Source: Promethearchaeota archaeon (lineage in GTDB: Archaea > Asgardarchaeota > Lokiarchaeia > Sigyniarchaeales > SOKP01). From it: a DNA stretch of 64,000 bases. The stretch covers positions 37,146-101,145 of the forward strand of contig SDNY01000001.1 of the NCBI GenBank assembly GCA_004524535.1, in the 5' to 3' direction. Made by a program: the position numbers and the translations under genes. The first letter of the stretch is position 1; every line of letters begins with the position of its first letter. The notes beneath the pieces were generated by a model. The model was not told the origin of the DNA. It ran no database searches and was given only the letters and a program-made list of their open reading frames with translations. Shown in pieces: positions 2,197 to 60,971 of the stretch.

Positions 2197-2198
2197 CC

Positions 2199-30190: not shown

Positions 30191-30682
30191 CTAATGGCAA
30201 ATAATTGACATAAAAGACTCTAAAATGTAAGGTTTAAATCCTTCATAATGTTCTCTTATAATAACAGAATGCATATTGAATTGTCGCTCTGTTAGTTCGC
30301 AATATAAAACACCATGTAAATTGTTTTCCGGATAATATCTTTTCCTTATCATTTTTGATCGCCCACCAGACCAATATGTAAATTCATGGGTATGGAGCCA
30401 AACTTGTTCCTTTTTTGTAACAACTACATTAATTGCGTTATACATATCTATTGATTCTTGAACCTCTCGACTATGAAGGAATTTAGTTCTGTCCTTTTTT
30501 AACCAATCAAATTCCATTGTAGCATTTGGCCCCCATATCTCATCATAGTTATTATGACTGTGAAATTTTATGGTTCCTTTATTTTCATCTCCTGTTACTT
30601 CGACTTCTTTAAACCAAATTGGTACTTTATTTATTGTGACATTAAATTCTGATTTTTCATAAATAAAATAATTCTTCTGCAT
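30191..30682 (-). CDS. Hypothetical protein
   Basis: ORF only. Confidence 0.4.
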   Translation of the reverse strand: MQKNYFIYEKSEFNVTINKVPIWFKEVEVTGDENKGTIKFHSHNNYDEIWGPNATMEFDWLKKDRTKFLHSREVQESIDMYNAINVVVTKKEQVWLHTHEFTYWSGGRSKMIRKRYYPENNLHGVLYCELTERQFNMHSVIIREHYEGFKPYILESFMSIICH

Positions 30683-30784: not shown

Positions 30785-31462
30785 TTACTTATTTAACAGT
30801 TCTTTTCCTTCCTCTACCCATTTCTTTATTCTATCTGCTGAAACACCTGATATCAGCATAGCTAATTCTTCAGGATCTTCTTTTATTAATCCTTCAACAC
30901 TATTAACCCCAAGATCCTGGAATTTCTTAGCAGTAGCAGAACCTAATCCAGATAACTTTGATAAAGAGATCTCTATTTCTTCTGGTTTGGGGGCAGGTTT
31001 CGGTTTGGCTTTAGTGGCTGGAGTCAGCTTAGTTTTTGGGGGTGTTTTTACTTTAGGTTCAATTACAGTCTTTTTAGGAATAGCTTGCATCTTTTCTTCT
31101 TTTTCGATTTCTTGTACGACTTCTATTTTTTCTTTTGGTATTTTTTTCTTCTTAACTTTCCGTTTAGGACTTGCTTTTACTCTTTCTTCTTTGGGTAAAT
31201 AAGGTTTCTTTTTCTTCTCCTTTTTTTTCAGAGGTTTTAAAGCTTTTAATTGTTCAATATTCCATTCATGTGTGGATTTTCTAAAATAGTCAATTTTTAT
31301 GTTTAATTCTTTTAAGAACGCAATTGTTTTTCCAGCTGCCTTTATTTCTGTCAAAGAAAAACCGTTTCCTTCTCTTATATGCCCTTCTCTAGAGGGAGAC
31401 TTTACCGTCGCAATGGTCTTTTTGACTGTAGTTGTTTTTTCTGTTTTATCCGTTTTTTCCAT
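30785..31462 (-). CDS. Ribosomal protein eL13-like domain fused to a Lys-rich linker and a C-terminal helix-hairpin-helix
   Basis: REGNGFSLTEIKAAGKTIAFLKELNIKIDYFRKSTHEWNIEQLKAL resembles the eL13 core (R.GRGFSL.EL..AGI....A..IGI.VD.RR.N.S.ES...N...L). The C-terminus has LSGLGSATAKKFQDLGVNSVEGL (HhH). Confidence 0.5.
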   Translation of the reverse strand: MEKTDKTEKTTTVKKTIATVKSPSREGHIREGNGFSLTEIKAAGKTIAFLKELNIKIDYFRKSTHEWNIEQLKALKPLKKKEKKKKPYLPKEERVKASPKRKVKKKKIPKEKIEVVQEIEKEEKMQAIPKKTVIEPKVKTPPKTKLTPATKAKPKPAPKPEEIEISLSKLSGLGSATAKKFQDLGVNSVEGLIKEDPEELAMLISGVSADRIKKWVEEGKELLNK

Positions 31463-31558: not shown

Positions 31559-32197
31559 TTAAAAAAAGATTAAATCAATTTTTTTCAATTTTTTTAATAT
31601 TTCATTAATTTCAGTTCGATTTTTCTCAGGATACATTCTTGAAATTTTAAGTGGAGAATTTTTACCGTTGCATTGTAAAGCTACACTGTGTTCAAATTCA
31701 GTTATAATTCCATTGGCTAATATTCTTTCTAAAACACTCTCAACAACTAATAATTTGGGAAATACCTCAGAAATTCTTCCTCCAAACGTTATGTTTTCTA
31801 TATCCGCATTAAAGGATTGAAACTTTTTTTCTGTAGTTTCTCTGAATAATTTTAGATCCGATCTATGTTTTTTCCAGAATCTATGACCGATTTTATATAG
31901 TGCCTTCTTAGTTTGACCAATCTCGTCATCAGCATCTGAGACTGAACAAATCAATACCCTTGAGGGATGGTGATAATAAATTAAGAATGTGGTATCTTCG
32001 GACTCCAAAACTCTGTTCATTTCATTTGTACTTTCACTTTTAGCCATTGCTTCTTTAATATTATCTATAGTTCGATTAATTGTTTCAAAAAAACCGGGAA
32101 ATATATTATTTTTAAATTTCTTTTGGAATTCCTTAAAAGAAATTTCCATTAGCGATATACCGTTATCAACATCAATTAAAAAAACTTTATATATCAA
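31559..32197 (-). CDS. Hypothetical protein, possible longin/roadblock-like fold
   Basis: The N-terminus IYKVFLIDVDNGISLMEISF, followed by an alternating strand/helix pattern, resembles longin/roadblock starts. Sits directly upstream of the GTPase gene. Weak evidence. Confidence 0.35.
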   Translation of the reverse strand: MIYKVFLIDVDNGISLMEISFKEFQKKFKNNIFPGFFETINRTIDNIKEAMAKSESTNEMNRVLESEDTTFLIYYHHPSRVLICSVSDADDEIGQTKKALYKIGHRFWKKHRSDLKLFRETTEKKFQSFNADIENITFGGRISEVFPKLLVVESVLERILANGIITEFEHSVALQCNGKNSPLKISRMYPEKNRTEINEILKKLKKIDLIFF

Positions 32198-32296
32198 AAT
32201 TAGAACGGGTTTTATTCACTTTTATTCTTATTATAAATAATAAAAATTCTGCTATATATTGCTGTGGATTAAAAATAGAGATTTTCTTAAATTACC

Positions 32297-33712
32297 CTAA
32301 ATATAACTACTAATTAAATCTATAAGAGTTTTAGAAAATTCTGGCAGACAATTATCAATTTTTTCCATTCCAACAAATTTTTCAATAAATAATAGCAAAA
32401 AAAGATTAAATTTTCCTACTTTTATTTTCTTAAAGATAATATTTTTACTTTCAGATGTTATATCTGAGGATACTATAAAATCTTCCTTTAGCAATTTAAA
32501 TTCTTTAAAAGTTTTATATAAAGTTTGAAAGTGGGGGGCTGAAATCTCAAATACTCTTCGAGAAACTTCGTCTTTAGAATAATTGGCTAATATAATTCCA
32601 TTTTCGTTTAAAAGTAATAACGCATCAGCATTCGTTTTATCTGCAAAAAATTTTAATTGTTTTTTAAAAAATTCACGATTCGGGGAAAGTTGCGAGAGCC
32701 CGAATGAATATGCAGAGATTAAGCTCCAATAATCGAAAATACTCGTCCGAAAGATTTTTATAAAAAATTTATCTGAATTTTTGTTAATTCCATTAGTGGC
32801 ATATTGTACTTTTTTTATTATTTCTTCTGAGAGCTTTAAATCTGGATCATATTTATTTAAACAAACAATAACTGGTGGGAATTCATCCAATTCTCTTAAA
32901 GATTTAATTATTCTAATAAAAAGGTCTATAGATTCATCTAATCTCTCTTTTGAATCTTGGATATCAATTATATAAAATAATAAGTCAACATTATATAGAT
33001 AATATTTGCTTTGTTCAAGATACTTTTCCCTGTATCTTTTTTGTCCACCTAAGTCCCACAGGGTCATTTGAGAGTTTTGATCTTCAAAAATTGTCTCCTC
33101 AGACCTTTCTACTCCTTTTGTGGGGAGCGTCTTTATAATTTCAGAATATTTCTTTTTGATTGCAAGAAGAAAACTTGTCTTTCCAGCCCTATCCAAGCCA
33201 ACAAATATTATCTTTATTTTTCTTTTTACAGAAAAAGGATCTTTTAAATCTGAACTAAAAGCAATCAAGTGTTCCCTTATTTCATTAATAATTTTTTTAT
33301 ATTCATTTAACTCTTTTGTATTTTGTATCTGTGTAGCGCCTTTTTCGAGAATAGCTCTCAGATATTTCATATTCTCGTGAAAAAAATTTTTATTCTCATC
33401 ATCAATTAACACCGTAATTGTGGCGGCCATAGCATTGCCTCTTGCCTTCTCATCCGCTATCAGAAAAAAATATGTAAGTCCACTTAGTTTTAAGTCAGGA
33501 AATGGAAGAATACCGAAATAATTAATATTTAAATCATCGCCATCTTGATATATTTCATCTCCCATAAGTAAACTAATCGTTTTCATAGCTATTATAAGAC
33601 GAGCGCTCTCATCCATATCATCTGGCCAATACACCTTAGGAGTAGGACCTTCTTCGTCAAACACTGACAAGACGATAGATTTGATTATATGCTTTTTTTC
33701 CTGTTCCGTCAT
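32297..33712 (-). CDS. Multidomain Arf-like small GTPase (N-terminal longin-like domain, GTPase, C-terminal roadblock-like domain)
   Basis: G1 GLDRAGKTS, G3 WDLGGQ, G4 NKYD. About 165 aa precede the GTPase domain and about 130 aa follow it (ADALLLLNENGIILANYS). Confidence 0.75.
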   Translation of the reverse strand: MTEQEKKHIIKSIVLSVFDEEGPTPKVYWPDDMDESARLIIAMKTISLLMGDEIYQDGDDLNINYFGILPFPDLKLSGLTYFFLIADEKARGNAMAATITVLIDDENKNFFHENMKYLRAILEKGATQIQNTKELNEYKKIINEIREHLIAFSSDLKDPFSVKRKIKIIFVGLDRAGKTSFLLAIKKKYSEIIKTLPTKGVERSEETIFEDQNSQMTLWDLGGQKRYREKYLEQSKYYLYNVDLLFYIIDIQDSKERLDESIDLFIRIIKSLRELDEFPPVIVCLNKYDPDLKLSEEIIKKVQYATNGINKNSDKFFIKIFRTSIFDYWSLISAYSFGLSQLSPNREFFKKQLKFFADKTNADALLLLNENGIILANYSKDEVSRRVFEISAPHFQTLYKTFKEFKLLKEDFIVSSDITSESKNIIFKKIKVGKFNLFLLLFIEKFVGMEKIDNCLPEFSKTLIDLISSYI

Positions 33713-33929: not shown

Positions 33930-34418
33930 TCAGTCTAATTTAAATGTAAAATCCCTACTGATCTGTACTACATCAATAAATTCTCTTAAATCCCAGCTAG
34001 AAATACGATATAAGAATTCTTTTCTAATCTTCCTTCTTCTCCGAAGAATTAGTCGTTTGGATAAATTCATTTTAGATAACTCCATTATTTTTTTTATATA
34101 TCCTTCACATAGTTCCTTTAAATCTGCCATTGGTCTTCCTATTCTGGTATATTTTTTTCTCTCTTCTTCATATCCCATCTCTGATAACACAGAGCATACA
34201 ATTTCTCGAATATGTGGTCCTGAAAGGAACCCGATTTCGGAACTTATAATCCTCCTTAAAACAGTTTTAGTAATTTGTTCAGCAGATTCATCATTTAAGG
34301 ATGTTTCTTTTAATAGACTACTATATATCTTATTTTCATCAAAAGGCTTGATACCACTTTTGGTAGCTACATCTGAGGGAAGATATTTTCTAATAATTTC
34401 ATCATTATTTCTGCTCAA
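33930..34418 (-). CDS. ATP-cone-like domain protein
   Basis: The N-terminal region KSGIKPFDENKIYSSLLKETSL..ESAEQITKTVLRRI resembles an ATP-cone. Apparent TTG start. Preferred over the antisense ORF 34057..34434. Confidence 0.45.
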   Translation of the reverse strand: MSRNNDEIIRKYLPSDVATKSGIKPFDENKIYSSLLKETSLNDESAEQITKTVLRRIISSEIGFLSGPHIREIVCSVLSEMGYEEERKKYTRIGRPMADLKELCEGYIKKIMELSKMNLSKRLILRRRRKIRKEFLYRISSWDLREFIDVVQISRDFTFKLD

Positions 34419-36955: not shown

Positions 36956-38026
36956 TTATTTTTCAATTTTTAAATAATCTTTCAACTGTTTTTTAACAAT
37001 ATCTACGGCGAATCCAATAATACCACTCTTAACCTTTGGATGTGAGAATATTATCAATACCATATCTTTCAATGATGGCATCTCAACATCAATTGGTGCG
37101 ATGTCTAGAATGCCTTCAGTGCCTCGCAAGGAGATAGACTTTAATTTACCAGCGTTTAATCCTTCAATGATATCTGATCCAATCATTGTAAGATTTTGCC
37201 CTATTGCAGGAAGTAAAGTCTCCGAAATTCTGCTTGAAATTGCTGAAGCTATGATTTTATCTCCTTTTAAAATAGATGAAGCTTCAATGTGTAAATCTAA
37301 ACTTAAAAGATTTTTTAGAATATCGGTCATATTTGCCGGAGGTATTTTTTCTTTTGACTTTTTGTCTTTTAAGGACTCTGATTTTGGTTTCTCCTCTTTT
37401 GGTACCTTTAATTTTTTTGAAAGAACACTTAACACTTCAGTCATATCCTTTTCTAATCGTTTTTGTTTAATAAGTGAATCATCCCGAGGAGCCCCCGGAC
37501 CGGCAACCGCTGCAGACGTTGGATTTTGTTCCACGCATTGTATTTCTGGTTTATGCTTAAATGTTCCATATATTCTGTCAGGAGCAATAACCGAACCAGA
37601 ATAAGGTTTAGGTTCAATTTCTTTAAGCATTTTATTTTCTTTTTTAGTAGTTGTTTTAGCTATAAAGGAAGGTGTATTAGATATTTCTATTCTATCTAGT
37701 TCATTATTCTTTCTATTTGGAGATTTTAAAGATTCCATCGGTTGATTCGGTAGAGGCTCTATTTTAGGGATTTCATGTAAATCTAAATTGTTTGATGTTT
37801 GTATTTTATTAAGGTTAGGATTAAAAAATCTTGTTTCACTGGGGATTTTTTCTGCTTCTCTTCTTATTTTTTTTTTTTCCTTTTTTTTTTTAATTTCTTT
37901 AGGTTTTTGAGTTGCTATTTTAATTCTAGGAGACTTTGAAGGAACTGGAAGCAATGCCCCGCACTTTCTACAAAAACGACCATTTTCCTCGTTGTTAGTA
38001 ACGCCACAGTTGCTGCAAATTATCAT
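36956..38026 (-). CDS. Zinc ribbon, Lys-rich disordered linker and Roadblock/LC7 (MglB-like) domain protein
   Basis: MIICSNCG...FCRKCG, a low-complexity K/E/P linker, then a C-terminal ~115 aa roadblock-like region (HIEASSILKGDKIIASA...ISLRGTEGILDIAPI). Confidence 0.6.
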   Translation of the reverse strand: MIICSNCGVTNNEENGRFCRKCGALLPVPSKSPRIKIATQKPKEIKKKKEKKKIRREAEKIPSETRFFNPNLNKIQTSNNLDLHEIPKIEPLPNQPMESLKSPNRKNNELDRIEISNTPSFIAKTTTKKENKMLKEIEPKPYSGSVIAPDRIYGTFKHKPEIQCVEQNPTSAAVAGPGAPRDDSLIKQKRLEKDMTEVLSVLSKKLKVPKEEKPKSESLKDKKSKEKIPPANMTDILKNLLSLDLHIEASSILKGDKIIASAISSRISETLLPAIGQNLTMIGSDIIEGLNAGKLKSISLRGTEGILDIAPIDVEMPSLKDMVLIIFSHPKVKSGIIGFAVDIVKKQLKDYLKIEK

Positions 38027-38194: not shown

Positions 38195-39133
38195 TCATTT
38201 ATATAAGATTTCTTTTAATAAATTAACAAGTGTGAGGTATTCATCTTTATTAATATCTGGATCTTCTCTGATTGCTAATAAATAATAGGGCGGGCCATTT
38301 TCTTTTATTGTAAATGGTTTGAATAAAAAAAATCTTCCAAATCTTTGGATTATCATTTTTTCTTCGGATTTTTCATAGATAAATTCCGAATATAGAAAAC
38401 TGTCATTTAAACTTAAGAAATAAGGAGTGGTTTGGTTCAAAATATCCTTTACTGCCGCATTATTATAGTATGAACCAACAATGAGAGAATTATCGTCTAT
38501 AATTTGAACACCTTCTGCTTTAAATTTAGTAGCGAAAGTTTCAATAGTTTTTTGAATTAAATTCGCTTTTGGATATAACGTTAAAAATATTTCCGATATT
38601 GCAGTGATAATCGACGATAAGTAGTAGATTGAAGTTCTGTAAAAATAGAATTTTTTGTATTCCATTGAATTTTTAATTTTATCCTGTAAGCTTAGTAAAA
38701 ATTTATCCAAATCATCTTGGTCCTCTTTAGCCAAGTTTGGGTCACATTTATGAAAAAAAACATAAATAGGGGGTTCAATTTCAAGGGTCTTAAATTGTTT
38801 AATAACATCACTTAAATAAGACAAGGATTCTTGAATTCTTTCTTTATCTCGCACGTCGATTACATAAATGGCAATTTCGGTTTTATCGAAGTATTTATTT
38901 GGACTTTTGAGGTATGAAATCCGATAGGCTATTTGCCCTCCTAAATCCCATTCTGAAATGTTTCTCCCTAAATATTGGAAAACCAGTCGTTGTGCACCTC
39001 GAGTAGGTTCAATATTAGCTATTTTTGAGAATTCTCTCTTAAGTGCAAATATAATTGAAGTCTTACCTGCGGAATCAAGACCTGTAAATAGAATTTTTTG
39101 AAGTTTAGCACTTTCATCTTTTAAATATTCCAA
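38195..39133 (-). CDS. Small GTPase with a C-terminal roadblock-like domain (Rag/Gtr-like architecture)
   Basis: G1 GLDSAGKTS, G3 WDLGGQ, G4 HKCD (HKxD as in Rag/Gtr GTPases). Its 312 aa leave about 135 aa C-terminal to the G domain. Confidence 0.75.
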   Translation of the reverse strand: MEYLKDESAKLQKILFTGLDSAGKTSIIFALKREFSKIANIEPTRGAQRLVFQYLGRNISEWDLGGQIAYRISYLKSPNKYFDKTEIAIYVIDVRDKERIQESLSYLSDVIKQFKTLEIEPPIYVFFHKCDPNLAKEDQDDLDKFLLSLQDKIKNSMEYKKFYFYRTSIYYLSSIITAISEIFLTLYPKANLIQKTIETFATKFKAEGVQIIDDNSLIVGSYYNNAAVKDILNQTTPYFLSLNDSFLYSEFIYEKSEEKMIIQRFGRFFLFKPFTIKENGPPYYLLAIREDPDINKDEYLTLVNLLKEILYK

Positions 39134-48997: not shown

Positions 48998-50323
48998 TTA
49001 ACTTTTTGTTTCAACAATATAATAATCTTTATCAAAATGTAGTTTTAACAAACAAATTCCAAGTAATACAGTAAAAATTAGATAACCAATACCCCCACCA
49101 AACAAATTAGGATAATTTGGATTCAATAATTCTATTCTGGTATCAAATGTTAAATAAATGCCTAAAATGGAAATTAATCCAATGAGTACGTATTTATTTT
49201 TTTTAATAAAATCTCTTCCTATTATATCTTGATAAAAGAAAGGTATAAAAAATAAAACAGTTAGGGGTAATAGAATTATTATAGTTTTATAAGCCAAGTG
49301 ATTTAAGAATATGAAAGCAATCGCAAAATAACTGAATTTTTCGTGTATCTTCAATTTTTTAGTTATTATTAAGAATCCTATGATTTCGTACATAAAAATC
49401 ATGAGTATAAGGTTTACTAAATATTTAGCTAAGCGCGGAATAATAAAAATCTCATCTATGAAAATTAAATAATAACACACTGAGTTTAATTGTACCCATT
49501 GAAAAAATCTAAAAACTTTGTAATAATCAAAAATAAGTTCTGGATAAATAAAAAACAGAAAATTTTGAGCTAGAAGAATTATTGCTACTAATCCATAGGT
49601 CTCAAGATTTTCTTTCTTTAATAATTCGCCAAGAGTGATATCGTGAAATATAAAGATTAATAACAAAAAAATAAAATAAGGGATCATCGAAACAATCAGA
49701 CCAAAAAGAAAATAAGTAATAAATTTATATTTGATATCTTTCTCTTTTTCTTCTTTTTTGTATTGAATTTCTCTTCTAAGGATAAATAATAATATTGTCC
49801 CTGCCAAGAATTTTGATTGATTTGTCAAAAACTGAAAATATATGAGAAATCCATTTGAAATTACCATGAGAAACAAAAATCTATGAATTTTTTCTTTAAC
49901 ACCTAATAATTTTAAGATTTTATTGAATTCTAATACGAATAAAACTGCAAAAATATAATTTAAACTATACCAGATAAAGTAAGAGATACTATAAGGCAAT
50001 AATGATAAGGATATTGCCCAAAGCATAAGGAAAAATGGTAAATATGTATTTAGAAGCCAAAATTCATTTTTTTCTTCGTAAACTCTATTTGGGTCAATTA
50101 AAAGCTGTCTTCCAGATCGATAATAAGTCCAGGAATCAGAATAATATAAATATGGGAAATGGTTCACTACAATTAAAAAATGTATTGCCCATGTGCCAAT
50201 ACATATCAACGGAATAATAATATAAAGGATTTCGTTATTTTTCTTTTTTCTAAGGTATAAAAACAAGCATATAAGGAAAAATATTAATGAAAACCATATA
50301 ATTGATAAAAAAAGAAATAGCAA
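48998..50323 (-). CDS. Array paralogue P1: polytopic membrane protein, DUF2029/GT87-like putative GT-C glycosyltransferase
   Basis: 441 aa, TTG start, loop SDSWTYYRSGRQLLIDPNRVY. C-terminal class C (IVETKS). Confidence 0.65.
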   Translation of the reverse strand: MLFLFLSIIWFSLIFFLICLFLYLRKKKNNEILYIIIPLICIGTWAIHFLIVVNHFPYLYYSDSWTYYRSGRQLLIDPNRVYEEKNEFWLLNTYLPFFLMLWAISLSLLPYSISYFIWYSLNYIFAVLFVLEFNKILKLLGVKEKIHRFLFLMVISNGFLIYFQFLTNQSKFLAGTILLFILRREIQYKKEEKEKDIKYKFITYFLFGLIVSMIPYFIFLLLIFIFHDITLGELLKKENLETYGLVAIILLAQNFLFFIYPELIFDYYKVFRFFQWVQLNSVCYYLIFIDEIFIIPRLAKYLVNLILMIFMYEIIGFLIITKKLKIHEKFSYFAIAFIFLNHLAYKTIIILLPLTVLFFIPFFYQDIIGRDFIKKNKYVLIGLISILGIYLTFDTRIELLNPNYPNLFGGGIGYLIFTVLLGICLLKLHFDKDYYIVETKS

Positions 50324-50455
50324 GGCTCATTCTCACTTTCTTTATTTCACTATTTAATGATAAAATTAATCTTTCTTTAAAAATATTGATATGAACGTCT
50401 ATAATTAATGAAATTGAAGCTTAATATATTTCTAGTTTAATTCTCTTCAGAATCA
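50324..50455 (-). repeat. Conserved inter-paralogue spacer U1 (putative promoter plus 5' UTR)
   Basis: A 132-nt spacer; a near-identical copy precedes each of the nine genes. In sense orientation it contains caatatttttaaagaaag (TATA-like) about 55 nt before the TTG. Confidence 0.6.
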
Positions 50456-51796
50456 CTATCCATCTTCCGTTTTTCTTTCAACAATATAAAAATCTTTGTC
50501 TAAATGTAGTTTTAACAAACAAATTCCCAGTAATACGGTAAAAATTAGATAACCAGCACTCCCACCAAATATATTAGGATATAATGGATTTTCTACAGGA
50601 TTAAATGGATTTACTACATTTACAGATAGATAAATACCTAAAACGGATAATAATCCAATCAGTATGTATTTATTTTTTTTAAAAAAATCTCTTCCTCTTA
50701 CATCTTGATGGAAGTAAGGAATAAAAAGTAAAAGAGTTAGGGGTAATAAAATTATTAAAGTTTTATCAGCTAAGCTATATAAAAATATGAAAGAAATTGC
50801 AAAATAGCTGAATTTTTCGTGTATCTTCAATTTTTTAGTTATTATTAAGAATCCTATGATTTCGCCCAAAATAATGAGAAGTATAAGGGAGACTATAAAT
50901 TGAGTCATGTTTGGAATAATAAAAATCTCATTTATAATAATTAAATAATAATGCACTAATCTAAATTGTAAAATTTGATAAAATTTTAAAACTTCGAAAT
51001 AATCTAAAATAAGTCCTGGATAAATAAAAAACAAAAAATTTTGAGATAAAAAAATTACTGCGACTAATCCATAGGTTTTAAGATTTTCTTTCTTAAATAA
51101 TTCGCCAAAAGGAATATCGTGAAACATAAAGATTAATAACAAAAAAATAAAATAGGGGGCCATCGTTACAATCATACAAAAAAGAAAATAAGTAATAAAC
51201 TTATATTTGAAATCTTTCTCTTTTTCTTCTTTGTTGTATTGAATTTCTCTTCTAAGGATAAATAATAATATTGCCCCTACCAAGAATTTTGATTGATTTA
51301 AAGCAAACTGGTGAAATATAAGAAATCCATTTGAAATTACCATTAGAAACAAAAATCTATGCATTTTTTCTCTAATCCCTAATAATTTTAAGATTTTATT
51401 GAATTCTAATACGAGTAAAATCGCAAAAATATAATTTAGACCATACCAAATTAAGTAAGATATATTATAAGGTAATAATGATAGAGATATTGCCCAAAGC
51501 ATAAGAAAAAATGGTAAATATATCACCCCCCAATAACCATAATCTTTTTTATAAAAGCTATTTGGGTTAATTAAAAGCTGTCTCCCAGAGTAATAGTAAA
51601 TCCCAAAATCCCAAAAAGGAATTTCTTGGTTAATGGTTACTAAAGTTAAGCAATATAGAGCCCATATGCCAATACATATCAACGGAATAATAATATAAAG
51701 GATTTCATAATTTTTCTTTTTTCTAAGGTATAAAAACAAGCATATGAGGAAAAATATTAACGATAGCCATATAATTGATAAAAACCAAATTAGCAA
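50456..51796 (-). CDS. Array paralogue P2
   Basis: 446 aa, TTG start, loop WDFGIYYYSGRQLLINPNSFY. Tail ERKTEDG (class B). Confidence 0.65.
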   Translation of the reverse strand: MLIWFLSIIWLSLIFFLICLFLYLRKKKNYEILYIIIPLICIGIWALYCLTLVTINQEIPFWDFGIYYYSGRQLLINPNSFYKKDYGYWGVIYLPFFLMLWAISLSLLPYNISYLIWYGLNYIFAILLVLEFNKILKLLGIREKMHRFLFLMVISNGFLIFHQFALNQSKFLVGAILLFILRREIQYNKEEKEKDFKYKFITYFLFCMIVTMAPYFIFLLLIFMFHDIPFGELFKKENLKTYGLVAVIFLSQNFLFFIYPGLILDYFEVLKFYQILQFRLVHYYLIIINEIFIIPNMTQFIVSLILLIILGEIIGFLIITKKLKIHEKFSYFAISFIFLYSLADKTLIILLPLTLLLFIPYFHQDVRGRDFFKKNKYILIGLLSVLGIYLSVNVVNPFNPVENPLYPNIFGGSAGYLIFTVLLGICLLKLHLDKDFYIVERKTEDG

Positions 51797-51928
51797 GACT
51801 CTATCTCACTTTCTTTATTTCACTATTTAATGATAAAATTAATCTTTCTTTAAAAATATTGATATGAACGTCTATAATTAATGAAATTGAAGCTTAATAT
51901 ATTTCTAGTTTAATTCTCTTCAGAATCA
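51797..51928 (-). repeat. Conserved spacer U2
   Basis: 132 nt, essentially identical to U1. Confidence 0.6.
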
Positions 51929-53272
51929 CTAGCCATCTTCCGTTTTTCTTTCAACAATATAAAAATCTTTGTCTAAATGTAGTTTTAACAAACAAATTCC
52001 CAGTAATACAGTAAAAATTAGGTAACCAGCACTCCCACCAAACAAATTAGGATAAAGTGGATTTTCTATAGGATAAAATAGATTTTCTACATTCACTGAT
52101 AAATAAATACCCAAAACGGAAATTAATCCAATCAATATGTATTTATTTTTTTTAAAAAAATCTCTTCCTATTTCATCTTGATGGAAGAAAGGAATAAAAA
52201 GTAAAAGAGTTAGGGGAAATAAAATTATAAGAACTCTATGAGCTAAGTGATTTAATAATATAAAAGAAAATGCAAAATAGCTGAATTTTTCTTGTATCTT
52301 CAATTTTTTAGTGATTAATAAGAATCCTATGATTTCGTACATAATAATGAGGAATATAAGGGTAAGTATAAATTTAGCTCCGTTTGGAATTATAAAAATA
52401 TCATATATAAACATAAAATAATAAAGCGCTAATCTAAATTGCAAATTTTGAAAATATCTAATAATTTTAAAATAATCAAAAATAAGTCCTGGATAAATAA
52501 TAAATAAAAAATTTTGAGCTAAAAAAATTACTGCGACTAATCCATAGGTTTTAAGATTTTCTTTCTCAAATAATTCGCTAAAAGGGATATCGTGGAATAT
52601 AAAGATTAATAACAAAAAAAGAAAAAAAGGGATCATCCCCACAATCATAACAAAAAGGAAATACGTAATAAATTTATATTTGAAATCTTTCTCTTTTTCT
52701 TCTTTGTTGTATTGAATTTCTCTTCTAAGAATAAATAATAATAGTGCACCTACGAAGAATTTTGATTGATTTAAACCAAATTGTAGAAATATAAGATAAC
52801 CATTTGAAATTACCATGAGGAACAAAAATCTATGAATTTTTTCCTTAATCTCTAATAATTTTAAGATTTTATTGAATTCTAATACGAATAAAACCGCAAA
52901 AATATAATGTAAAATATACCAGATAAAGTAAGCTACAACATAAGGCAATAATGAAATGGATATTGCCCAAAGCATAAGAAAAAATGGTAAACTTGTCATT
53001 CCCATCCAATAACCATGATCCTCTTTATAAAATCTATTTGGGTCAATTAAAAGCTGTCTCCCAGAGTAATAGTAAATCCCAAAATCAAAATAAAGAAATT
53101 TTGGGTTAAAAGATAGTATAATTAACCAATGTATCGCCCATAACCCAATAGAAATCAAGGGAATAATAATATAAAGGATTTCGTTATTTTTCTTTTTTCT
53201 AAGGTATAAAAACAAGCATATGAGGAAAAATATTAGCGATAGCCATAAAATTGATAAATAAATAAATAGCAC
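51929..53272 (-). CDS. Array paralogue P3
   Basis: 447 aa, TTG start, loop FDFGIYYYSGRQLLIDPNRFY (Asp codon at 53084..53086). Tail ERKTEDG (class B). Confidence 0.65.
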   Translation of the reverse strand: MLFIYLSILWLSLIFFLICLFLYLRKKKNNEILYIIIPLISIGLWAIHWLIILSFNPKFLYFDFGIYYYSGRQLLIDPNRFYKEDHGYWMGMTSLPFFLMLWAISISLLPYVVAYFIWYILHYIFAVLFVLEFNKILKLLEIKEKIHRFLFLMVISNGYLIFLQFGLNQSKFFVGALLLFILRREIQYNKEEKEKDFKYKFITYFLFVMIVGMIPFFLFLLLIFIFHDIPFSELFEKENLKTYGLVAVIFLAQNFLFIIYPGLIFDYFKIIRYFQNLQFRLALYYFMFIYDIFIIPNGAKFILTLIFLIIMYEIIGFLLITKKLKIQEKFSYFAFSFILLNHLAHRVLIILFPLTLLLFIPFFHQDEIGRDFFKKNKYILIGLISVLGIYLSVNVENLFYPIENPLYPNLFGGSAGYLIFTVLLGICLLKLHLDKDFYIVERKTEDG

Positions 53273-53446
53273 GGCTTACTATCACTTTCTTGTTTCAGTA
53301 TTTAATGATAAAATTAATTATTCTTTAAAAATATTGATATGAAAGGTTATACTTAATTCAATTGAAGCATAATATATTTCTAGTTTAATTCTTTTCAGAA
53401 TCACTAGCAATCCCCCGCTTTTCTCTTAATTTCTTTATAGGTCTAC
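53273..53446 (-). repeat. Conserved spacer U3, long form
   Basis: 174 nt. It is longer because P4 stops early inside the long relic of the upstream gene's tail (53385..53459). Confidence 0.6.
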
Positions 53447-54775
53447 TTAGAGTTCCTGTTTTCTTTCAACAATATAAAAATCTTTGTCTAAATACAGTTT
53501 TAACAAACAAATTCCAAGTAATATAGTAAAAATTAACCAACCAGCACTCCCACCAAACAAATTAGGATAATGTGGATTAAATCCTAATACTCCTTCCCAT
53601 GTAAAATAAATGCCTGAAACGGAAATTAATCCCATCAGTACGTATTTATTTTTTTTTATAAAATCTTTTCCTCTTACCTCTTGATAAAAGAAAGGAATAA
53701 AAAGTAAAAGAGTTAGGGGTAATAAAATTATTAGGATTCTATAAGCTAGGTAACTTAAAAATATGAAAGAAATGGCATAATAACTGAATTTTTCTTGTAT
53801 ATTCAATTTTTTAGTTATTAATAAGAAACCTATGATTACGTACATAAAAATGAGGAATATAAAGGATACTATAATTTTAGCTAGTATTGGAATAATAAAA
53901 ATCCTATTTAAGATAATTAAATAATAATTCTCTAAAAAAAGACTAAAAATATGCCATTTTTGAGAAATTAGAAAAAAATCAAAAATAAGTCTTGGATAAA
54001 TAATAAACAAAAAATTTTGAGCTAGAAAAATTGATCCTACTAATCCATAGGTTTTAAGATTTTCTTTCTCAAATAATTCGCCAAAAGGGATATCGTGAAA
54101 GATAAAAATTAATAACAAAAAAAGAAAAAAAGGGATCATCCCAACAATCATACAAAAAAGAAAATAAGTAATAAATTTATATTTGAAATCTTTCACTCTT
54201 TCTTCTTTTTTGTATTGAATTTCTCTTCTAAGGATAAAAAATAATAGTGTCCCTACGATGAATTTTGATTGATTGCTAAAAAATTGAAGATATATGAGAT
54301 AACCATTTGAAGTTACCATGAGAAACAAAAATCTATGAATTTTTTCTTTAATCCCTAATAATTTTAAGATTTTATTGAATTCTAATACGAGTAAAACCGC
54401 AAAAATATAATTTAAACCATACCAGATAAAGTAAGATATCCTATAAGGCAATAATGAGAGCGATGTTGCCCAAAACATAGGAAAAAATGGTAAATATATC
54501 ATTCCTGTCGAGTCACCATTTTTTTCTATGTACAATCTATTAGGGTCAATTAAAAGCTGTCTACCTGAGTAATAATAAATAGAAAAATCTATATAAGCAT
54601 TTAATGGGAAAAAATATGCTACAATTAAACTATGTATCGCCCATATGCCAATACAAATCAAGGGGATAATAATATAAAGGATTTCGTTATTTTTCTTTTT
54701 TCTAAGATATAAAAACAAGCATATAAGGAAAAGTATTAACGATAGCCATATAATTGATAAAAACCGAAATAGCAA
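53447..54775 (-). CDS. Array paralogue P4
   Basis: 442 aa, TTG start, loop IDFSIYYYSGRQLLIDPNRLY. Tail ERKQEL (class A). Confidence 0.65.
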   Translation of the reverse strand: MLFRFLSIIWLSLILFLICLFLYLRKKKNNEILYIIIPLICIGIWAIHSLIVAYFFPLNAYIDFSIYYYSGRQLLIDPNRLYIEKNGDSTGMIYLPFFPMFWATSLSLLPYRISYFIWYGLNYIFAVLLVLEFNKILKLLGIKEKIHRFLFLMVTSNGYLIYLQFFSNQSKFIVGTLLFFILRREIQYKKEERVKDFKYKFITYFLFCMIVGMIPFFLFLLLIFIFHDIPFGELFEKENLKTYGLVGSIFLAQNFLFIIYPRLIFDFFLISQKWHIFSLFLENYYLIILNRIFIIPILAKIIVSFIFLIFMYVIIGFLLITKKLNIQEKFSYYAISFIFLSYLAYRILIILLPLTLLLFIPFFYQEVRGKDFIKKNKYVLMGLISVSGIYFTWEGVLGFNPHYPNLFGGSAGWLIFTILLGICLLKLYLDKDFYIVERKQEL

Positions 54776-54907
54776 GGCTCTATCTCACTTTCTTTATTTC
54801 ACTATTTAATGATAAAATTAACCTTTCTTTAAAAATATTGATATAAAAGGCTATAATTAATTCATTTGAATCTTAATATATTTCTAGATTAATTTTCTTC
54901 AGAATTA
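54776..54907 (-). repeat. Conserved spacer U4
   Basis: 132 nt, same sequence family. Confidence 0.6.
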
Positions 54908-56269
54908 CTAGCAATCTTCCGTTTTTCTTTCAACAATATGAAAATCTTTATCTAAATGTAGTTTTAATAAACAAATTCCAAGTAATATAGTAAAAATTAA
55001 CCAACCAGCACTCCCACCAAACAAATTAGGATAATATGAATATGGATTTAATATATTTAATCTTGTCTCACTGGTTAAATTAATGTCATATGTTAAATAA
55101 ATGCCTAAAACAGAAATTAATCCAATCAGTACGTATTTATTTTTTTTAATAAAATTTCTCCCTATTTCATCTTGATGGAAGAAAGGAATAAAAAGTAAAA
55201 GAGTTAAGGGGATTAGAACTATCAAAGTTTTAAAAGCTATGCTATTTAAAAATATGAAAGAAATTGCAAAATAGCTGAATTTTTCGTGTATCTTCAATTT
55301 TTTAGTTATTAATAAGAATCCTATGATTTCGTACAGAATAATGAGAAATATAACGGAGACTATAACTTTAACTGCGATTGGAATAATAAAAATCTCATGT
55401 ATAAAAGTTAAATAATAAAACGCTAAGCTAATTTGGTAAATTTGATAATATCTAAAAATTATGAAATAATAATCAAAAATAAGTCTTGGATAAATAATAA
55501 ATAAAAAATTTTGAGATAGAAAAATTACTGCGACTAATCCATAGGTTTTAAGATTTTCTTTCTCAAATAATTCGCTAAAAGGGATATCGTGAAAGATAGA
55601 GATTAATAAAAAAAAAATAAAATAAGGGACCATCCCAATAATCATACCAAAAAGAAAATAAGTAATAAATTTATATTTGAAATCTTTCTCTTTTTCTTCT
55701 TTGTTGTATTGAATTTCTCTTCTAAGGATAAATAATAATAGTGCACATACGAAGAATTTTGATTGATTTAAAGCAAATTGCATAATTATGAGAAATCCAT
55801 TTGAAATTACTATGAGAAACAAAAATCTATTAATTTTTTCTTTCACACCTAATAATTTTAAGATTTTATTGAATTCTAATACGAGTAAAGCTGCAAAAAT
55901 ATAATTTACCCCATACCAGATAAAATAAGCTATGTGATAAGGGAATAATGAAATGGATATTGCCCAAAGCATACCAAAAAATGGTAAACATGGGATTGAG
56001 TCCCAGTAATAAGGATGTTCTCTGTAAAATTTATTAGGGTCAATTAAAAGCTGTCTACTAGGGTAATAGTAAATCCCAAAATCAGAATAAAAAAATCTTG
56101 GGTTAAAGTATAGTATAATTAACCAATGTATCGCCCAGAGACCAATACAAATCAACGGAATAATTATATAAAGTATTTCATTATTTTTCTTTTTTCTAAG
56201 GTATAAAAACAAGCATATAAGGAAAAATATTAATGAAAACCATATAATTGATAAAAAAAGAAATAGCAA
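54908..56269 (-). CDS. Array paralogue P5
   Basis: 453 aa, TTG start, loop SDFGIYYYPSRQLLIDPNKFY. Tail ERKTEDC (class B). Confidence 0.65.
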   Translation of the reverse strand: MLFLFLSIIWFSLIFFLICLFLYLRKKKNNEILYIIIPLICIGLWAIHWLIILYFNPRFFYSDFGIYYYPSRQLLIDPNKFYREHPYYWDSIPCLPFFGMLWAISISLFPYHIAYFIWYGVNYIFAALLVLEFNKILKLLGVKEKINRFLFLIVISNGFLIIMQFALNQSKFFVCALLLFILRREIQYNKEEKEKDFKYKFITYFLFGMIIGMVPYFIFFLLISIFHDIPFSELFEKENLKTYGLVAVIFLSQNFLFIIYPRLIFDYYFIIFRYYQIYQISLAFYYLTFIHEIFIIPIAVKVIVSVIFLIILYEIIGFLLITKKLKIHEKFSYFAISFIFLNSIAFKTLIVLIPLTLLLFIPFFHQDEIGRNFIKKNKYVLIGLISVLGIYLTYDINLTSETRLNILNPYSYYPNLFGGSAGWLIFTILLGICLLKLHLDKDFHIVERKTEDC

Positions 56270-56404
56270 GGCTCAATCTCACTTTCTTTATTTCACTATT
56301 TAATGATAAAATTAATCTTTCTTTAAAAATATTGATATGAAAGGCTATACTTAATTCAATTGAAGCTTAATATATTTCTAGTTTAATTCTCTTCAGAATC
56401 ATTA
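56270..56404 (-). repeat. Conserved spacer U5
   Basis: 135 nt, same sequence family. Confidence 0.6.
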
Positions 56405-57733
56405 TCAATCTTCCGTTTTTCTTTCAACAATATAAAAATCTTTGTCTAAATGTAGTTTTAATAAGCAAATTCCAAGTAAAACAGTAAAAATTAACCAACC
56501 AGCATTCCCACCAAACAAATTAGGATAATGTAGATTTATTGGTACTATTCCATCCCATGTTAAATAAATACCTAAAACGGAAATTAATCCAATCAATATA
56601 TATTTATTTTTTTTAATAAAATCTATTTCTATTTCATCTTGATGGAAGAAAGGAATAAAAAGTAAAAGGATTAGGGGTAATAAAATTATTAAAATTTTAA
56701 AAGCTAAATAATTTAAAAAGATGAAAGAAAGTGCAAAATAACTGAATTTTTCGTGTATCTTCAATTTTTTAGTTATTAATAAGAATCCTATGATTACGTA
56801 CATTAAAATGAGGAATATAAGGGAGACTATAATTCTAGCTATAATTGGAATAAAAAAAATCTTATTTATAAAAATTAAATAATAATGTGGTAAAAAAAAC
56901 TGTAAATTATGAAAATATTGAGAAATTAGAAAAAAATCAAAAATAAGTCCTGGATATATAAAAAATAAAAAATTTTGAGCTAGAAAAATTAATAACACTA
57001 ATCCATAGGTTTTAAGATTTTCTTTCTCAAATAATTTGCCAAAAGGGATATCGTGAAAGATAAAGATTAATAATAAAAAAAGAAAATAAGGAATCATTCC
57101 CACAATCATAACAAAAAGAAAATAAGTAATAAATTTATATTTGAAATCTTTCTCTTTTTCTTCTTTTTTGTATTGAATTTCTCTTCTAAGGATAAAAAAT
57201 AATATTGCCCCTACGAAGAATTTTGATTGACTAAAAAAAAATTGAAAAAATATGAGAAATCCATTTGAAATTACTATGAGAAATAAAAATCTATGAATTT
57301 TTTCTTTTACACCTAATAATTTTAAGATTTTATTGAATTCTAATATGAATAAAACCGCAAAAATATAATTTAAGATATACCAGATAAAGTAAGAGATATA
57401 ATAAGGCAATAATGAGAGCGATATTGCCCAAAGCATAAGGAAAAATGGTAAATATGCTATTGTAACAAATAAGCTACTTCTTTTTTTGTATAATCTATTG
57501 GGGTCAATTAATAGCTGTCTACCAGAGTAATAATATATATCAAAATCATAATAAGAAATTTGTGGATTATGGTATACAATAATTAAGCTATGTATTGCCC
57601 AAATGCCAATACAAATCAATGGAATAATAATATAAAGGATTTCAATATTCTTCTTTTTTCTAAAGTATAAAAACAAGTATATAAGGAATAATATTAACGA
57701 TAGCCATATAATTGATAAATTACGAGGTATCAA
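56405..57733 (-). CDS. Array paralogue P6
   Basis: 442 aa, TTG start, loop YDFDIYYYSGRQLLIDPNRLY. Tail ERKTED (class B). Confidence 0.65.
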   Translation of the reverse strand: MIPRNLSIIWLSLILFLIYLFLYFRKKKNIEILYIIIPLICIGIWAIHSLIIVYHNPQISYYDFDIYYYSGRQLLIDPNRLYKKRSSLFVTIAYLPFFLMLWAISLSLLPYYISYFIWYILNYIFAVLFILEFNKILKLLGVKEKIHRFLFLIVISNGFLIFFQFFFSQSKFFVGAILFFILRREIQYKKEEKEKDFKYKFITYFLFVMIVGMIPYFLFLLLIFIFHDIPFGKLFEKENLKTYGLVLLIFLAQNFLFFIYPGLIFDFFLISQYFHNLQFFLPHYYLIFINKIFFIPIIARIIVSLIFLILMYVIIGFLLITKKLKIHEKFSYFALSFIFLNYLAFKILIILLPLILLLFIPFFHQDEIEIDFIKKNKYILIGLISVLGIYLTWDGIVPINLHYPNLFGGNAGWLIFTVLLGICLLKLHLDKDFYIVERKTED

Positions 57734-57867
57734 ATTTCACTTTCACTTTTTCTGTTTCACTATTTAATTATAAAATTAATCTTTCTTTAAAAATATTAAT
57801 ATGAAAGGCTATAATTAATTCAATTGAAGCTTAATATATTTATAATTTAATTCTCTTCAGAATCACA
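57734..57867 (-). repeat. Conserved spacer U6
   Basis: 134 nt, same sequence family. Confidence 0.6.
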
Positions 57868-59190: not shown

Positions 59191-59276
59191 GGCTCGCTCT
59201 TACTATTTTTATTTCAATATTTAATGATAAAATTAATTATTCTTTAAAAATATTGATATGAAAGGCTATAATTAAT
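59191..59276 (-). repeat. Conserved spacer U7, truncated
   Basis: Only the promoter-proximal ~86 nt match the spacer family. Unique sequence follows (59277..59489). Confidence 0.55.
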
Positions 59277-59489
59277 TCTCTACATAAGTATGGATATGAT
59301 GTATCAGACGATGAGATAGAGGCTGTATAAAGGATCATTAAAAATGATGTTTTAATGGGTTACAAGACAATCTCCTTTTGGGCGATTGATCCAAGCGAAT
59401 ATAATGATTTAATTGAAAATTTGAAATAATTCTCAGAATAATTATCCGGTACAGATAAGGAATCTAGAAATTCTACCTTATAAAAAAAA

Positions 59490-60803: not shown

Positions 60804-60971
60804 GGCTCACTCTTACTTTTTTGTTTCACTATTTAATGATAAAATTAATGATTCTTTAAAAATATTAATATGAAAGGCTATAATTAATTAAATTGAAGCT
60901 TAATATATTTCTAGTTTAATTCTCTTCAAAATCACTAGCAATCCCCTGTTTTTCTTTTAATTTCTTGCTAA
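60804..60971 (-). repeat. Conserved spacer U8, long form
   Basis: 168 nt. It includes most of the long relic (60916..60984), which overlaps the P9 stop codon. Confidence 0.6.

Follow-up and report, generated by a model that had tools for sequence, protein, structure and literature searches.

A hallmark of nutrient signaling in eukaryotes is the presence of Rag GTPases together with longin-domain GAPs such as folliculin and GATOR1. The eukaryotic Rags are obligate heterodimers held together through their C-terminal domains, and the substrates of the FLCN-FNIP, GATOR1 and C9orf72-SMCR8 complexes are Rag and Arf GTPases. In bacteria, the Ras-like GTPase MglA has a roadblock dimer, MglB, as its GAP; to our knowledge, MglB has no arginine finger of the folliculin kind.

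In Asgard archaea, fusions of a longin domain to a GTPase, with or without a roadblock domain, were reported in 2016 (Klinger, as cited in PMC4917890), and a 2020 study described GTPases joined to a longin domain, a roadblock domain or both (bioRxiv 10.1101/2020.10.19.343400). The longin-GTPase-roadblock (LGR) architecture is present in Ca. Prometheoarchaeum MK-D1, and AF2 predicts homodimers that form via the roadblock or the longin domains (Tran et al., 2024, PMC10933270). A reading of the present locus from its sequence only had called a GTPase flanked on both sides by such domains unusual, but these three reports document fusions of this type in Asgard archaea. A 2025 study reported that a Gly-Pro (GP) motif is specific to GAP-type longins and absent from non-GAP longins, and that this motif plus an arginine finger occurs in Asgard FLCN/SMCR8-type longins; it also poses the question of which Asgard GTPases partner with these longins (PMC12290439).

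We analyzed a 64,000-nucleotide stretch of DNA (the window) from a genome of the Promethearchaeota, a lineage formerly called Lokiarchaeota. The gene at positions 32297..33712 encodes a 471-amino-acid protein, referred to here as LGR, and the gene at 31559..32197, which has a TTG start, encodes a 212-amino-acid neighbor; our ORF check returned the protein sizes given by the sequence-only reading. These genes and all features described below lie on the minus strand. The two genes do share a strand, as had been noted, but on this strand the GTPase gene comes first and the 212-aa gene follows 99 nt downstream, rather than standing just upstream and preceding the GTPase. Full-length LGR homologs are found in Asgard MAGs at 62-93% identity, in at least 80 species genomes, and the neighbor has 370 homologs at 50-100% identity, one of which (P0121) is 100% identical. 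Because hundreds of full-length homologs exist, both ORFs are real genes. A promoter and terminator scan, of a bacterial type that is inapplicable to archaea, gave background levels at the locus. The database name of proteins of the LGR kind is ‘ADP-ribosylation factor-like’, although they are laid out like Rags and carry a folliculin-type longin.

The N-terminus of LGR, in which the strings quoted by the earlier reading are present, had been likened over some 165 residues to longin/uDENN-type domains, and structure prediction bears this out for about 130 of them. As modeled by AF2 (pLDDT 82.2, pTM 0.80), residues 9-131 (33320..33688) are a longin domain, with the ββαβββαα element order of that fold (strands at 10-19, 22-29, 65-71, 76-86 and 94-104; helices at 35-51, 105-113 and 115-130). 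The best Foldseek match of the model is a Lokiarchaeota longin (8yqg, 5.5e-8, TM 0.72), followed at modest E values of 5e-4 to 2e-2 by GATOR1 (NPRL2/3) chains, Lst4, FLCN-FNIP2 and C9orf72-SMCR8; the chain 6ulg_L among these matches was looked up and is folliculin. The nearest solved folds are thus the longins of GAP complexes, of the uDENN/FLCN-NPRL-SMCR8 kind, ahead of SNARE, TRAPP or SRX longins. By fold alone, however, the catalytic subunits (FLCN, NPRL2, SMCR8) are no nearer to LGR than the non-catalytic ones (Lst4/FNIP, NPRL3). The Pfam Folliculin family (PF11704) matches all 20 N-terminal domains scanned, at best with 6e-6, and scores 22.8 bits on the 471-aa protein, just below the gathering score of 23.3. 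Because a profile of the longin domain matched no PDB sequence even at E 10, the link to FLCN-type longins rests on Pfam, the motifs and the fold search.

No DENN domain scores above noise in Pfam. Where FLCN and SMCR8 have a DENN domain and NPRL its C-terminal domain, the longin is followed instead by a helical linker (residues 132-160, 33233..33319; AF2 helix at 135-155) that ends in a conserved KDPF and leads into the GTPase domain. Longin-profile matches of 500-680 aa, one of which at 579 aa has the length of human FLCN, were considered as eukaryotic folliculins and rejected, as Pfam identified them as Asgard longin-Rag-like GTPases with N-terminal extensions. No eukaryotic proteins were identified among the longin-profile matches examined.

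Two motifs in the longin domain are strictly conserved in an alignment of 37 orthologs with a mean column identity of 75%. Gly22-Pro23 (33644..33649), the GP motif, lies past the β1-β2 turn at the start of β2 and is invariant in 37/37 sequences, and Arg91 (33440..33442), which sits in an ARG motif in the β4-β5 loop and is a candidate arginine finger, is invariant across them together with Gly92. Phe18 and the G1-G5 residues of the GTPase domain are likewise invariant or nearly so. In an hhalign comparison, FFLIADEKARG of LGR pairs with TFFIKDSLARG of human FLCN, whose sequence was confirmed against the PDB, so that Arg91 corresponds to FLCN Arg164, in a short and weak local match (E 0.017). 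Beyond the orthologs, most relatives in the longin family keep the GP motif. Longins with both GP and Arg-Gly are fused to Rag-like GTPases (~470-680 aa), to Ras/Rab-like GTPases (~345 aa) and also to roadblock domains, and 36/42 short longin-GTPase proteins retain both motifs. Because it is repeatedly fused to small GTPases, this type of longin appears to be functionally tied to them. Given the invariance of GP and Arg-Gly and the alignment of Arg91 with the folliculin Arg164 finger, we infer that the LGR longin is a built-in regulatory platform, probably of the GAP type.

The G domain (residues 164-335, 32708..33223) has complete nucleotide-binding and catalytic motifs. All three motifs cited earlier were found, namely GLDRAGKTS with the P-loop lysine at residues 172-180, WDLGGQ with the G3 glutamine Gln224 at 219-224 and NKYD at 286-289, and they are joined by Thr198 in switch I and RTSIFD at 322-327; Asn286 is kept in ≥90% of the orthologs. 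In Pfam, Gtr1_RagA (PF04670) matches best, at 1.8e-25 and 90.2 bits (cut-off 22), and Arf (PF00025) follows at 1e-20. The Gtr1_RagA match covers residues 167-384, or model positions 1-219 of 232, and thus runs past the G domain. BLASTP aligns LGR with human RagA at 2e-13 and 25% identity over 246 aa, and the G domain plus roadblock (G-R) part matches the PDB entries 8yl2 (4.2e-36) and 8zla (6e-21). Switch II exceeds that of Arf1 by 4 residues, as seen from a 4-residue gap in Arf1 in the phmmer alignment, whereas the same stretch aligns to RagA with no more than a 1-residue gap, on the query side. The G5 motif reads FRTSIFD in LGR and FRTSIWD in RagA, a ‘PN’ linker is common to both, and in several LGR clusters at a greater distance the G4 motif is the Rag-type HKxD. 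The designation Arf-like given to the protein thus agrees with its database label and with the Arf-type G1 and G3 motifs, but its layout, switch II length and G5 motif are Rag/Gtr-like.

The C-terminal part (residues 336-471, 32300..32707) had been described as roadblock-like, and sequence homology bears this out: it is homologous to the C-terminal roadblock domain of the Rags. The BLASTP alignment to RagA continues beyond the G domain and, across the PN linker, takes in RagA residues 181-240; a profile of residues 336-471 alone matches 8yl2 in its C-terminal part only (2.4e-5). An hhalign comparison with the RagA C-terminal domain alone is weak (E 0.008), and the domain has no match in Pfam. 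A second Rag-like GTPase of 312 aa with a G domain and a roadblock domain and without a longin is encoded 4.5 kb upstream of the LGR gene, at 38195..39133 (Gtr1_RagA, 1.4e-24; 8yl2, 2.7e-79), and it is 33% identical to LGR, in an alignment that runs through LGR residue 438. A 356-aa zinc-ribbon protein encoded after this second gene was considered to end in a roadblock domain, and this was rejected for lack of sequence support.

The 212-aa neighbor had been said to begin like a longin/roadblock fold. Its N-terminal ~140 residues (31778..32197) are marginally longin-like in the AF2 model, which has a pLDDT of 76.9 over the whole protein, a poorly formed β2 and four C-terminal helices. Foldseek places longins first (Sec22b at 1e-3, with a probability of ~1.0 and a target-relative TM of 0.63, then VAMP7 and Mon1/Ccz1) and roadblock proteins second (MglB, LAMTOR), so the suggestion agrees with the ranking, but at an E value of only ~1e-3 and on a model of pLDDT 77. 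At the sequence level, the family profile reaches only E 0.4-0.9 against the PDB, with the VAMP7-like longin 2dmw as a weak match (E 0.94), and the single sequence has no PDB match; Pfam Longin matches are weak and occur in 3/36 family members, and hhalign detects no similarity between the neighbor and the LGR longin. The C-terminal helical tail (residues 150-212, 31562..31750) is a probable winged helix-turn-helix. TrmB (PF01978) matches 23/36 members at about residues 170-212, at best with 2.9e-4 and in all cases below the 25.6-bit cut-off, and matches to HTH_24/27/36 map to the same region.

Taken together, these observations lead us to read LGR as an Asgard Rag/Gtr-like (also called ‘Arf-like’) small GTPase of longin, G domain and roadblock, in which the longin acts as a tethered regulator, and we give this reading a probability of roughly 60%. 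In our model, LGR would dimerize through its roadblock domains and probably through its longin domains too, which would sandwich the pair of G domains between one platform of roadblock domains and another of longin domains. The resulting layers would resemble the Rag C-terminal domains, Rag G domains and FLCN-FNIP longins of the lysosomal folliculin complex. The longin would then regulate GTP hydrolysis, with Arg91 reaching into the nucleotide pocket of its own G domain or that of the partner. The 312-aa paralog is a candidate heterodimer partner, and the conserved downstream protein, with its longin-like and winged-helix-like parts, is a candidate partner or effector.

Alternatively, the longin could be a non-catalytic platform for dimerization, scaffolding or GEF-like activity, as in FNIP/Lst4, NPRL3, Mon1-Ccz1, TRAPP and Ragulator, in which case Arg91 and the GP motif would be structural and regulation would come from separate factors. 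Such a role would fit the best eukaryotic fold matches, which include Lst4 (4zy8) and NPRL3-sized chains, and most longin and roadblock platforms are GEFs or scaffolds (PMC3747258). It would also fit the divergent LGR paralogs, which keep the domain and lack the arginine, and the lack of association between the longin arginine and the catalytic G3 glutamine across 52 longin-GTPase fusions (29/10/9/4). We nevertheless regard this explanation as rather unlikely, for GP and Arg-Gly are invariant in the orthogroup and widely retained over four architectures, and the GP motif is reportedly absent from non-GAP longins (PMC12290439). Far less probable, in our view, is that LGR works as an Arf-type membrane switch that relies on an amphipathic helix at its N-terminus and on an interswitch toggle. 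The G1 and G3 motifs and the Pfam Arf match do point that way, as does the comparison of the G domain alone, in which Arf1 and Gtr1/RagA score similarly and Arf1 chains are the top eukaryotic matches (58 bits versus 51 for Gtr1); the nomenclature of Klinger names the longin-fused Loki GTPases ‘Arf-like’ (PMC4917890). However, an Arf has its amphipathic helix in front of a single ~180-aa G domain, whereas the LGR G domain starts at about residue 164 of 471, behind a 160-aa longin and linker, and there is no N-terminal amphipathic helix and no Gly2. The higher Gtr1_RagA score and its reach past the G domain, the Rag-length switch II, the Rag-like G5 and linker and the Rag-type C-terminal domain all argue against an Arf-type switch as well.

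The genes around LGR raise two further questions, the first being whether its longin acts in trans, with LGR bringing the GAP element to its partner in a RagA/RagC-like heterodimer with the 312-aa paralog. The two Rag-like genes lie close to each other in a conserved neighborhood, with a homolog of the paralog at the same relative position in loci L001 and L004, the G-R parts show the identity given above, and eukaryotic Rags pair in this way through their C-terminal domains. An operon pair of MK-D1 is also predicted to heterodimerize; LGR-type proteins, on the other hand, are predicted to be homodimers (PMC10933270), and the two genes here are separated by unrelated ones, so that we consider a trans arrangement unlikely. 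The second question is whether the 212-aa gene is a mere syntenic neighbor, functionally unconnected to the GTPase, which we judge to be nearly an even bet. Of 84 related loci, 76 have it downstream of LGR on the same strand and 8 are without flanking sequence, but the whole block, from NrdD to the L13e-like/HhH gene, the 163-aa protein and the methyltransferase, is conserved with it. In most genomes a transglutaminase-like gene on the opposite strand stands between it and the GTPase gene, the 99-nt spacer contains an AT-rich, TATA-like stretch, and a 40%-identical LGR (L086) has no neighbor of this type. Against mere synteny, the gene keeps its downstream place in a lineage at only 44%/28% identity, the 44% being that of its LGR, even though neither the genes upstream nor the L13e-like gene are the same there, and its product is longin-type, a fold typically paired with GTPases or with other longins.

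LGR bears on when the pairing of Rag GTPases with longin GAPs arose. In the LGR orthogroup, and in the related longin-Ras/Rab and longin-Rag fusions, this longin type is covalently joined to small GTPases, which is Rosetta-stone evidence for a functional pairing before eukaryotes. As a very conserved protein of one chain, LGR also lends itself to biochemical work. A bolder proposal is that LGR, with its own folliculin-type longin as the source of the arginine finger, and the adjacent longin/winged-helix protein form a minimal prokaryotic module of a Rag, a FLCN/FNIP-like longin pair and a DNA-binding output. We hold this to be improbable; if true, the module would be a pre-eukaryotic counterpart of Rag-folliculin nutrient signaling, with its output via a prokaryote-style transcription factor and not TORC1. 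In the Asgard Rag-like GTPase literature, we found no description of the GP/Arg motifs and the conserved longin/winged-helix neighbor of this orthogroup.

Compared to known systems, LGR resembles the eukaryotic RagA-D and Gtr1/2 in its G domain followed by a C-terminal roadblock domain, its long switch II, its FRTSI(W/F)D motif and its PN linker. It differs from them in the extra N-terminal longin and in having NKYD instead of HKxD as its G4 motif, and we found no evidence for a Ragulator, TORC1 or lysosome context. With FLCN-FNIP (Lst7-Lst4), GATOR1 NPRL2-NPRL3 and C9orf72-SMCR8, it shares the longin fold and the GP after the β1-β2 turn, and its β4-β5 arginine aligns, weakly, with FLCN Arg164. 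In these GAP complexes, however, the longin proteins are separate heterodimers, whereas the LGR longin is fused to the GTPase and has no DENN or C-terminal domain. The MglA-MglB and SRX-SRβ systems are alike in that a small GTPase is controlled by a platform of longin or roadblock type, but they are made of separate polypeptides and belong to other GTPase subfamilies.

The closest relatives are the Asgard Rag-like GTPases with L-G-R, L-G or G-R layouts. The solved structures compared here are of Rag-like GTPases (8yl2, 8zla) and of a longin (8yqg), none being of an LGR protein itself, and none of the papers searched dealt with 8YL2 or ‘LokiRag’. The G-R part of LGR matches 8yl2 and 8zla, labeled ‘LokiRagM’, and its longin model is like 8yqg, the longin of a Loki Roadblock-Longin protein. 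Relative to the Rag-like GTPases of the MK-D1 type, LGR comes from another MAG and forms a different, highly conserved orthogroup. Its layout is already known for Asgard archaea, and LGR is a well-preserved example of it, not a new kind of system.

The 471-aa open reading frame (ORF) listed at 32297..33712 on the minus strand encodes a three-domain small GTPase, which we call the longin-GTPase-roadblock (LGR) protein. It combines an intact G domain with a longin domain of the GAP-complex type, bearing a GP motif (Gly22-Pro23) and an Arg-Gly pair (Arg91-Gly92), and with a Rag-type C-terminal domain, and we are highly confident of this architecture. A second ORF, listed at 31559..32197 (minus strand, TTG start), encodes a 212-aa protein, hereafter the neighbour. 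The window is AT-rich (G+C ~25-32%), and both ORFs are real genes. Full-length homologues of LGR number in the hundreds (62-93% identity), and those of the neighbour number 370, including one at 100% identity ('hypothetical protein EU529_00320 [Promethearchaeota archaeon]'). These matches assign the window to the Asgard phylum Promethearchaeota. The two genes are separated by 99 nt, and because both are on the minus strand, the 212-aa gene follows the GTPase gene, whereas the sequence-only reading had put it upstream.

The GTPase motifs quoted in that reading, G1 GLDRAGKTS (aa 172-180), G3 WDLGGQ (aa 219-224) and G4 NKYD (aa 286-289), are all present, together with switch I Thr198 and a G5-like RTSIFD (aa 322-327). 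The top Pfam match is Gtr1/RagA (PF04670, 1.8e-25, aa 167-384), with Arf placed second at 1e-20. A sequence search of the PDB is headed by the Asgard entries 8yl2 (4.2e-36, aa 163-413) and 8zla (6e-21; 'monomeric Rag-like small GTPase from Asgard Lokiarchaeota (LokiRagM)' in the fold-library description), followed by Arf1, Gtr1 and RagA chains at 1e-15 to 1e-12. Human RagA, whose sequence as used here, like that of FLCN below, is one residue off its best-matching PDB chain, is 25% identical to LGR over 246 residues (BLASTP, 2e-13). Aligned residues extend from the P-loop over FRTSIFD/FRTSIWD and a common 'PN' linker to RagA residues 181-240, the first half of the RagA roadblock C-terminal domain. 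Switch II of LGR is four residues longer than that of Arf1, whereas the same stretch aligns to RagA with a one-residue gap only.

With a profile restricted to the last 137 residues, the one match is to the C-terminal part of 8yl2 (2.4e-5), and hhalign pairs the LGR C-terminus weakly with the RagA C-terminal domain (E 0.008). Homology to RagA, to 8yl2 and to the 312-aa paralogue described below identifies the LGR C-terminus as a roadblock domain of the Rag type, in line with the roadblock call made from the sequence. The G4 motif is NKxD in the 471-aa orthogroup and the Rag-type HKxD in several more distant LGR clusters.

The N-terminal longin call also held. An AlphaFold2 model of LGR aa 1-160, built with 20 homologues (pLDDT 82.2, pTM 0.80), has the predicted longin topology β(10-19) β(22-29) α(35-51) β(65-71) β(76-86) β(94-104) α(105-113) α(115-130), followed by a long linker helix (aa 135-155). 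The first Foldseek match in the PDB is 8yqg, 'Longin domain from a Lokiarchaeota archaeon Roadblock-Longin protein' (5.5e-8, TM 0.72), and behind it come GATOR1 chains, the Lst4 longin domain, FLCN-FNIP2 and C9orf72-SMCR8 (5e-4 to 2e-2); chain 6ulg_L is folliculin. No SNARE, TRAPP or SRX longin stands near the top of this list. The Pfam Folliculin model scores LGR just below threshold (22.8 bits against 23.3) and matches 20 of 20 homologous domains scanned (best 6e-6).

Six residues, F18, G22, P23, P25, R91 and G92, are invariant in 37 orthologues. G22-P23 starts β2, directly past the β1-β2 turn, and R91 is in the β4-β5 loop; judging from the topology of the 2-1-5-4-3 antiparallel sheet, these two loops should adjoin. 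In a short, weak hhalign match (E 0.017), LGR FFLIADEKARG pairs with FLCN TFFIKDSLARG, which would put R91 at the position of the FLCN Arg164 finger. A recent survey gives a GP motif ahead of β2 plus an arginine finger as the mark of the GAP-type longins FLCN, NPRL2, SMCR8 and C9orf72, reports the same pairing in one class of Asgard longins, and raises the question of their GTPase targets in Asgard archaea (PMC12290439).

Searching 1.84 billion representative proteins with the longin-domain profile gave 165 matches at E ≤ 1e-3, 77 of these at ≤ 1e-10, and architectures were assigned for the best 150 of the 165 by Pfam scans and motif extraction. LGR proteins of ~460-490 aa retain GP and Arg-Gly in the clusters nearest the 471-aa orthogroup and lack the arginine in divergent clusters. 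Among Gtr1_RagA-positive LGR proteins with N-terminal extensions (500-680 aa), the arginine is missing in most and the GP region is often unaligned. The same longin type is fused to a Ras/Rab-like GTPase in proteins of ~345 aa (PF00071, up to 1e-49), and 36 of the 42 short longin-GTPase proteins have both motifs. Both are also present in every fully aligned domain of the roadblock-longin proteins (~285 aa) and in most stand-alone longins, which vary in size. All named examples are Asgard, and the matches examined include no eukaryotic folliculin; a 579-aa match considered as one was rejected, since a Pfam scan identifies it as an Asgard GTPase. Across the longin-GTPase fusions compared, retention of the longin arginine shows no association with retention of the G3 glutamine. 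Locus L086, which has a 40%-identical LGR, contains 1.5 kb upstream of the LGR gene a further gene (1764..2273, minus strand) for a stand-alone LGR-longin homologue of 169 aa, which shares 31% identity with aa 10-118.

The neighbour itself has no match in Pfam or PDB sequence searches. In its AlphaFold2 model (pLDDT 76.9, pTM 0.57), a β-(β)-α-β-β-β-α-α unit takes up the first ~140 residues, and aa 150-212 form four short helices. Foldseek places Sec22b nearest to the N-terminal unit (1e-3, probability 1.0), together with VAMP7, Mon1/Ccz1 and Ykt6 longins, and next the MglB and LAMTOR roadblocks, which fits the longin- or roadblock-type start proposed for it earlier. A profile search adds a marginal match to the VAMP7-like longin 2dmw, and the C-terminal ~45 residues give recurrent sub-threshold matches to TrmB and other winged-helix models in 23 of 36 family members. 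No sequence similarity to the LGR longin was detected, and the GP motif is absent. An invariant Arg80 (31958..31960, minus strand), within a conserved HPxSR motif, lies in the neighbour's own β4-β5 loop, the arginine-finger position of GAP-type longins.

We scanned one genome per prokaryotic species with two peptide patterns, a search that reaches close orthologues only, and found 124 stretches encoding an LGR orthologue, from which 80 loci were kept. Their taxon labels, as given by depositors, are Promethearchaeota/-ia, Hod-, Hermod- or Thorarchaeota, or 'uncultured archaeon', with one exception. That locus (DATKTW010000091.1), labelled 'Candidatus Nanopelagicaceae bacterium', carries a complete Asgard-type cluster of LGR, neighbour, L13e-like and 163-aa genes and is probably a mis-binned contig. 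Of 84 loci, 76 have a neighbour homologue downstream in the same orientation, and the remaining eight have ≤1.5 kb of downstream sequence. The spacing is ~100-300 nt in 13 loci, the window's among them, ~2-2.5 kb in three, and ~1.4-1.55 kb in most, which have a transglutaminase-core gene on the opposite strand between the two. This gene (418-473 aa) is present in L001, L004, L010 and most related loci and is missing from the window and about a dozen others.

The conserved block is wider, with NrdD upstream and, on the downstream side, genes for the L13e-like/HhH protein, the 163-aa protein and a methyltransferase, so that synteny by itself is no proof of a functional link between LGR and the neighbour. 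Two distant lineages give mixed evidence. In one, with a 44%-identical LGR, both the neighbour (28% identical) and the 163-aa gene keep their downstream place, although the genes on the upstream side and the L13e-like gene are different; in the other, L086, the neighbour is missing. The 163-aa protein (30191..30682, minus strand) has no family match and remains part of the cluster in the former lineage too. The adjoining 225-aa protein (30785..31462, minus strand) is L13e-like at its N-terminus and Lys-rich in the middle and has a helix-hairpin-helix at its C-terminus; its conservation is limited to closer relatives. A 162-aa ATP-cone-only ORF (33930..34418, minus strand) occupies the position of the 600-aa anaerobic ribonucleotide reductase NrdD of most relatives; it is probably a real gene and not a remnant, given full-length copies at 82-86% identity in L005 and L006.

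The window encodes a second Rag-like GTPase, a 312-aa paralogue without a longin (38195..39133, minus strand), closely related to 8yl2 (2.7e-79) and 33% identical to LGR aa 167-438 (9e-38). It is followed by a 356-aa protein (36956..38026, minus strand) with no recognisable domain besides an N-terminal zinc ribbon. The pair, whose second member ranges from 316 to 356 aa, lies ~4.5-5 kb upstream of LGR in the window, L001 and L004, and in L001 and L004 it comes after threonine synthase. Elsewhere, at 48998..62339 (minus strand), nine tandem paralogous ORFs of 437-455 aa, mutually 70-85% identical and all with TTG starts, resemble polytopic membrane proteins; Pfam gave no match for the two scanned, and G+C falls to ~24-25% across them.

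We propose that LGR would dimerize via its roadblock domains, and probably its longin domains also, so that the G domains would be sandwiched between two platforms. The tethered longin would then control GTP hydrolysis, most simply with Arg91 given in cis or across the dimer. We give the overall reading, architecture included, a probability of about 0.6; the GAP role for Arg91, as read from the sequence, is a tentative assignment to which we give slightly less than even odds. The longin could instead be a non-catalytic scaffold or a GEF-like platform, or it could work in trans on the 312-aa paralogue, inside a heterodimer. An Arf-type membrane switch is unlikely because LGR lacks an N-terminal helix and its switch II and C-terminal domain are Rag-like. 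That the neighbour is a direct partner of LGR seems doubtful to us; the competing explanation is that the two are functionally unrelated.

The architecture had been called unusual, which does not hold within the Asgard lineage. Lokiarchaeal GTPases of the 'Arf-like', Ras-like and Rag-like kinds with fused longin and roadblock domains have been on record since 2016, according to the passage of PMC4917890 that reports Klinger et al. Tran et al. (PMC10933270) report Rag-like GTPases of L-G-R, L-G and G-R layout from Ca. Prometheoarchaeum MK-D1, and structures of Asgard Rag-like GTPases (8yl2, 8zla) and of a roadblock-longin protein (8yqg) are solved. The literature consulted contained no statement of an FLCN-type GP/Arg signature in this highly conserved LGR orthogroup, of repeated fusion of one longin type to Rag-like and Ras/Rab-like GTPases, or of a longin plus winged-helix-like gene travelling with LGR; these three are modest extensions of the known picture. 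The proposed LGR dimer sandwich resembles the lysosomal folliculin complex, with its layers of Rag C-terminal domain, G domain and FLCN-FNIP.
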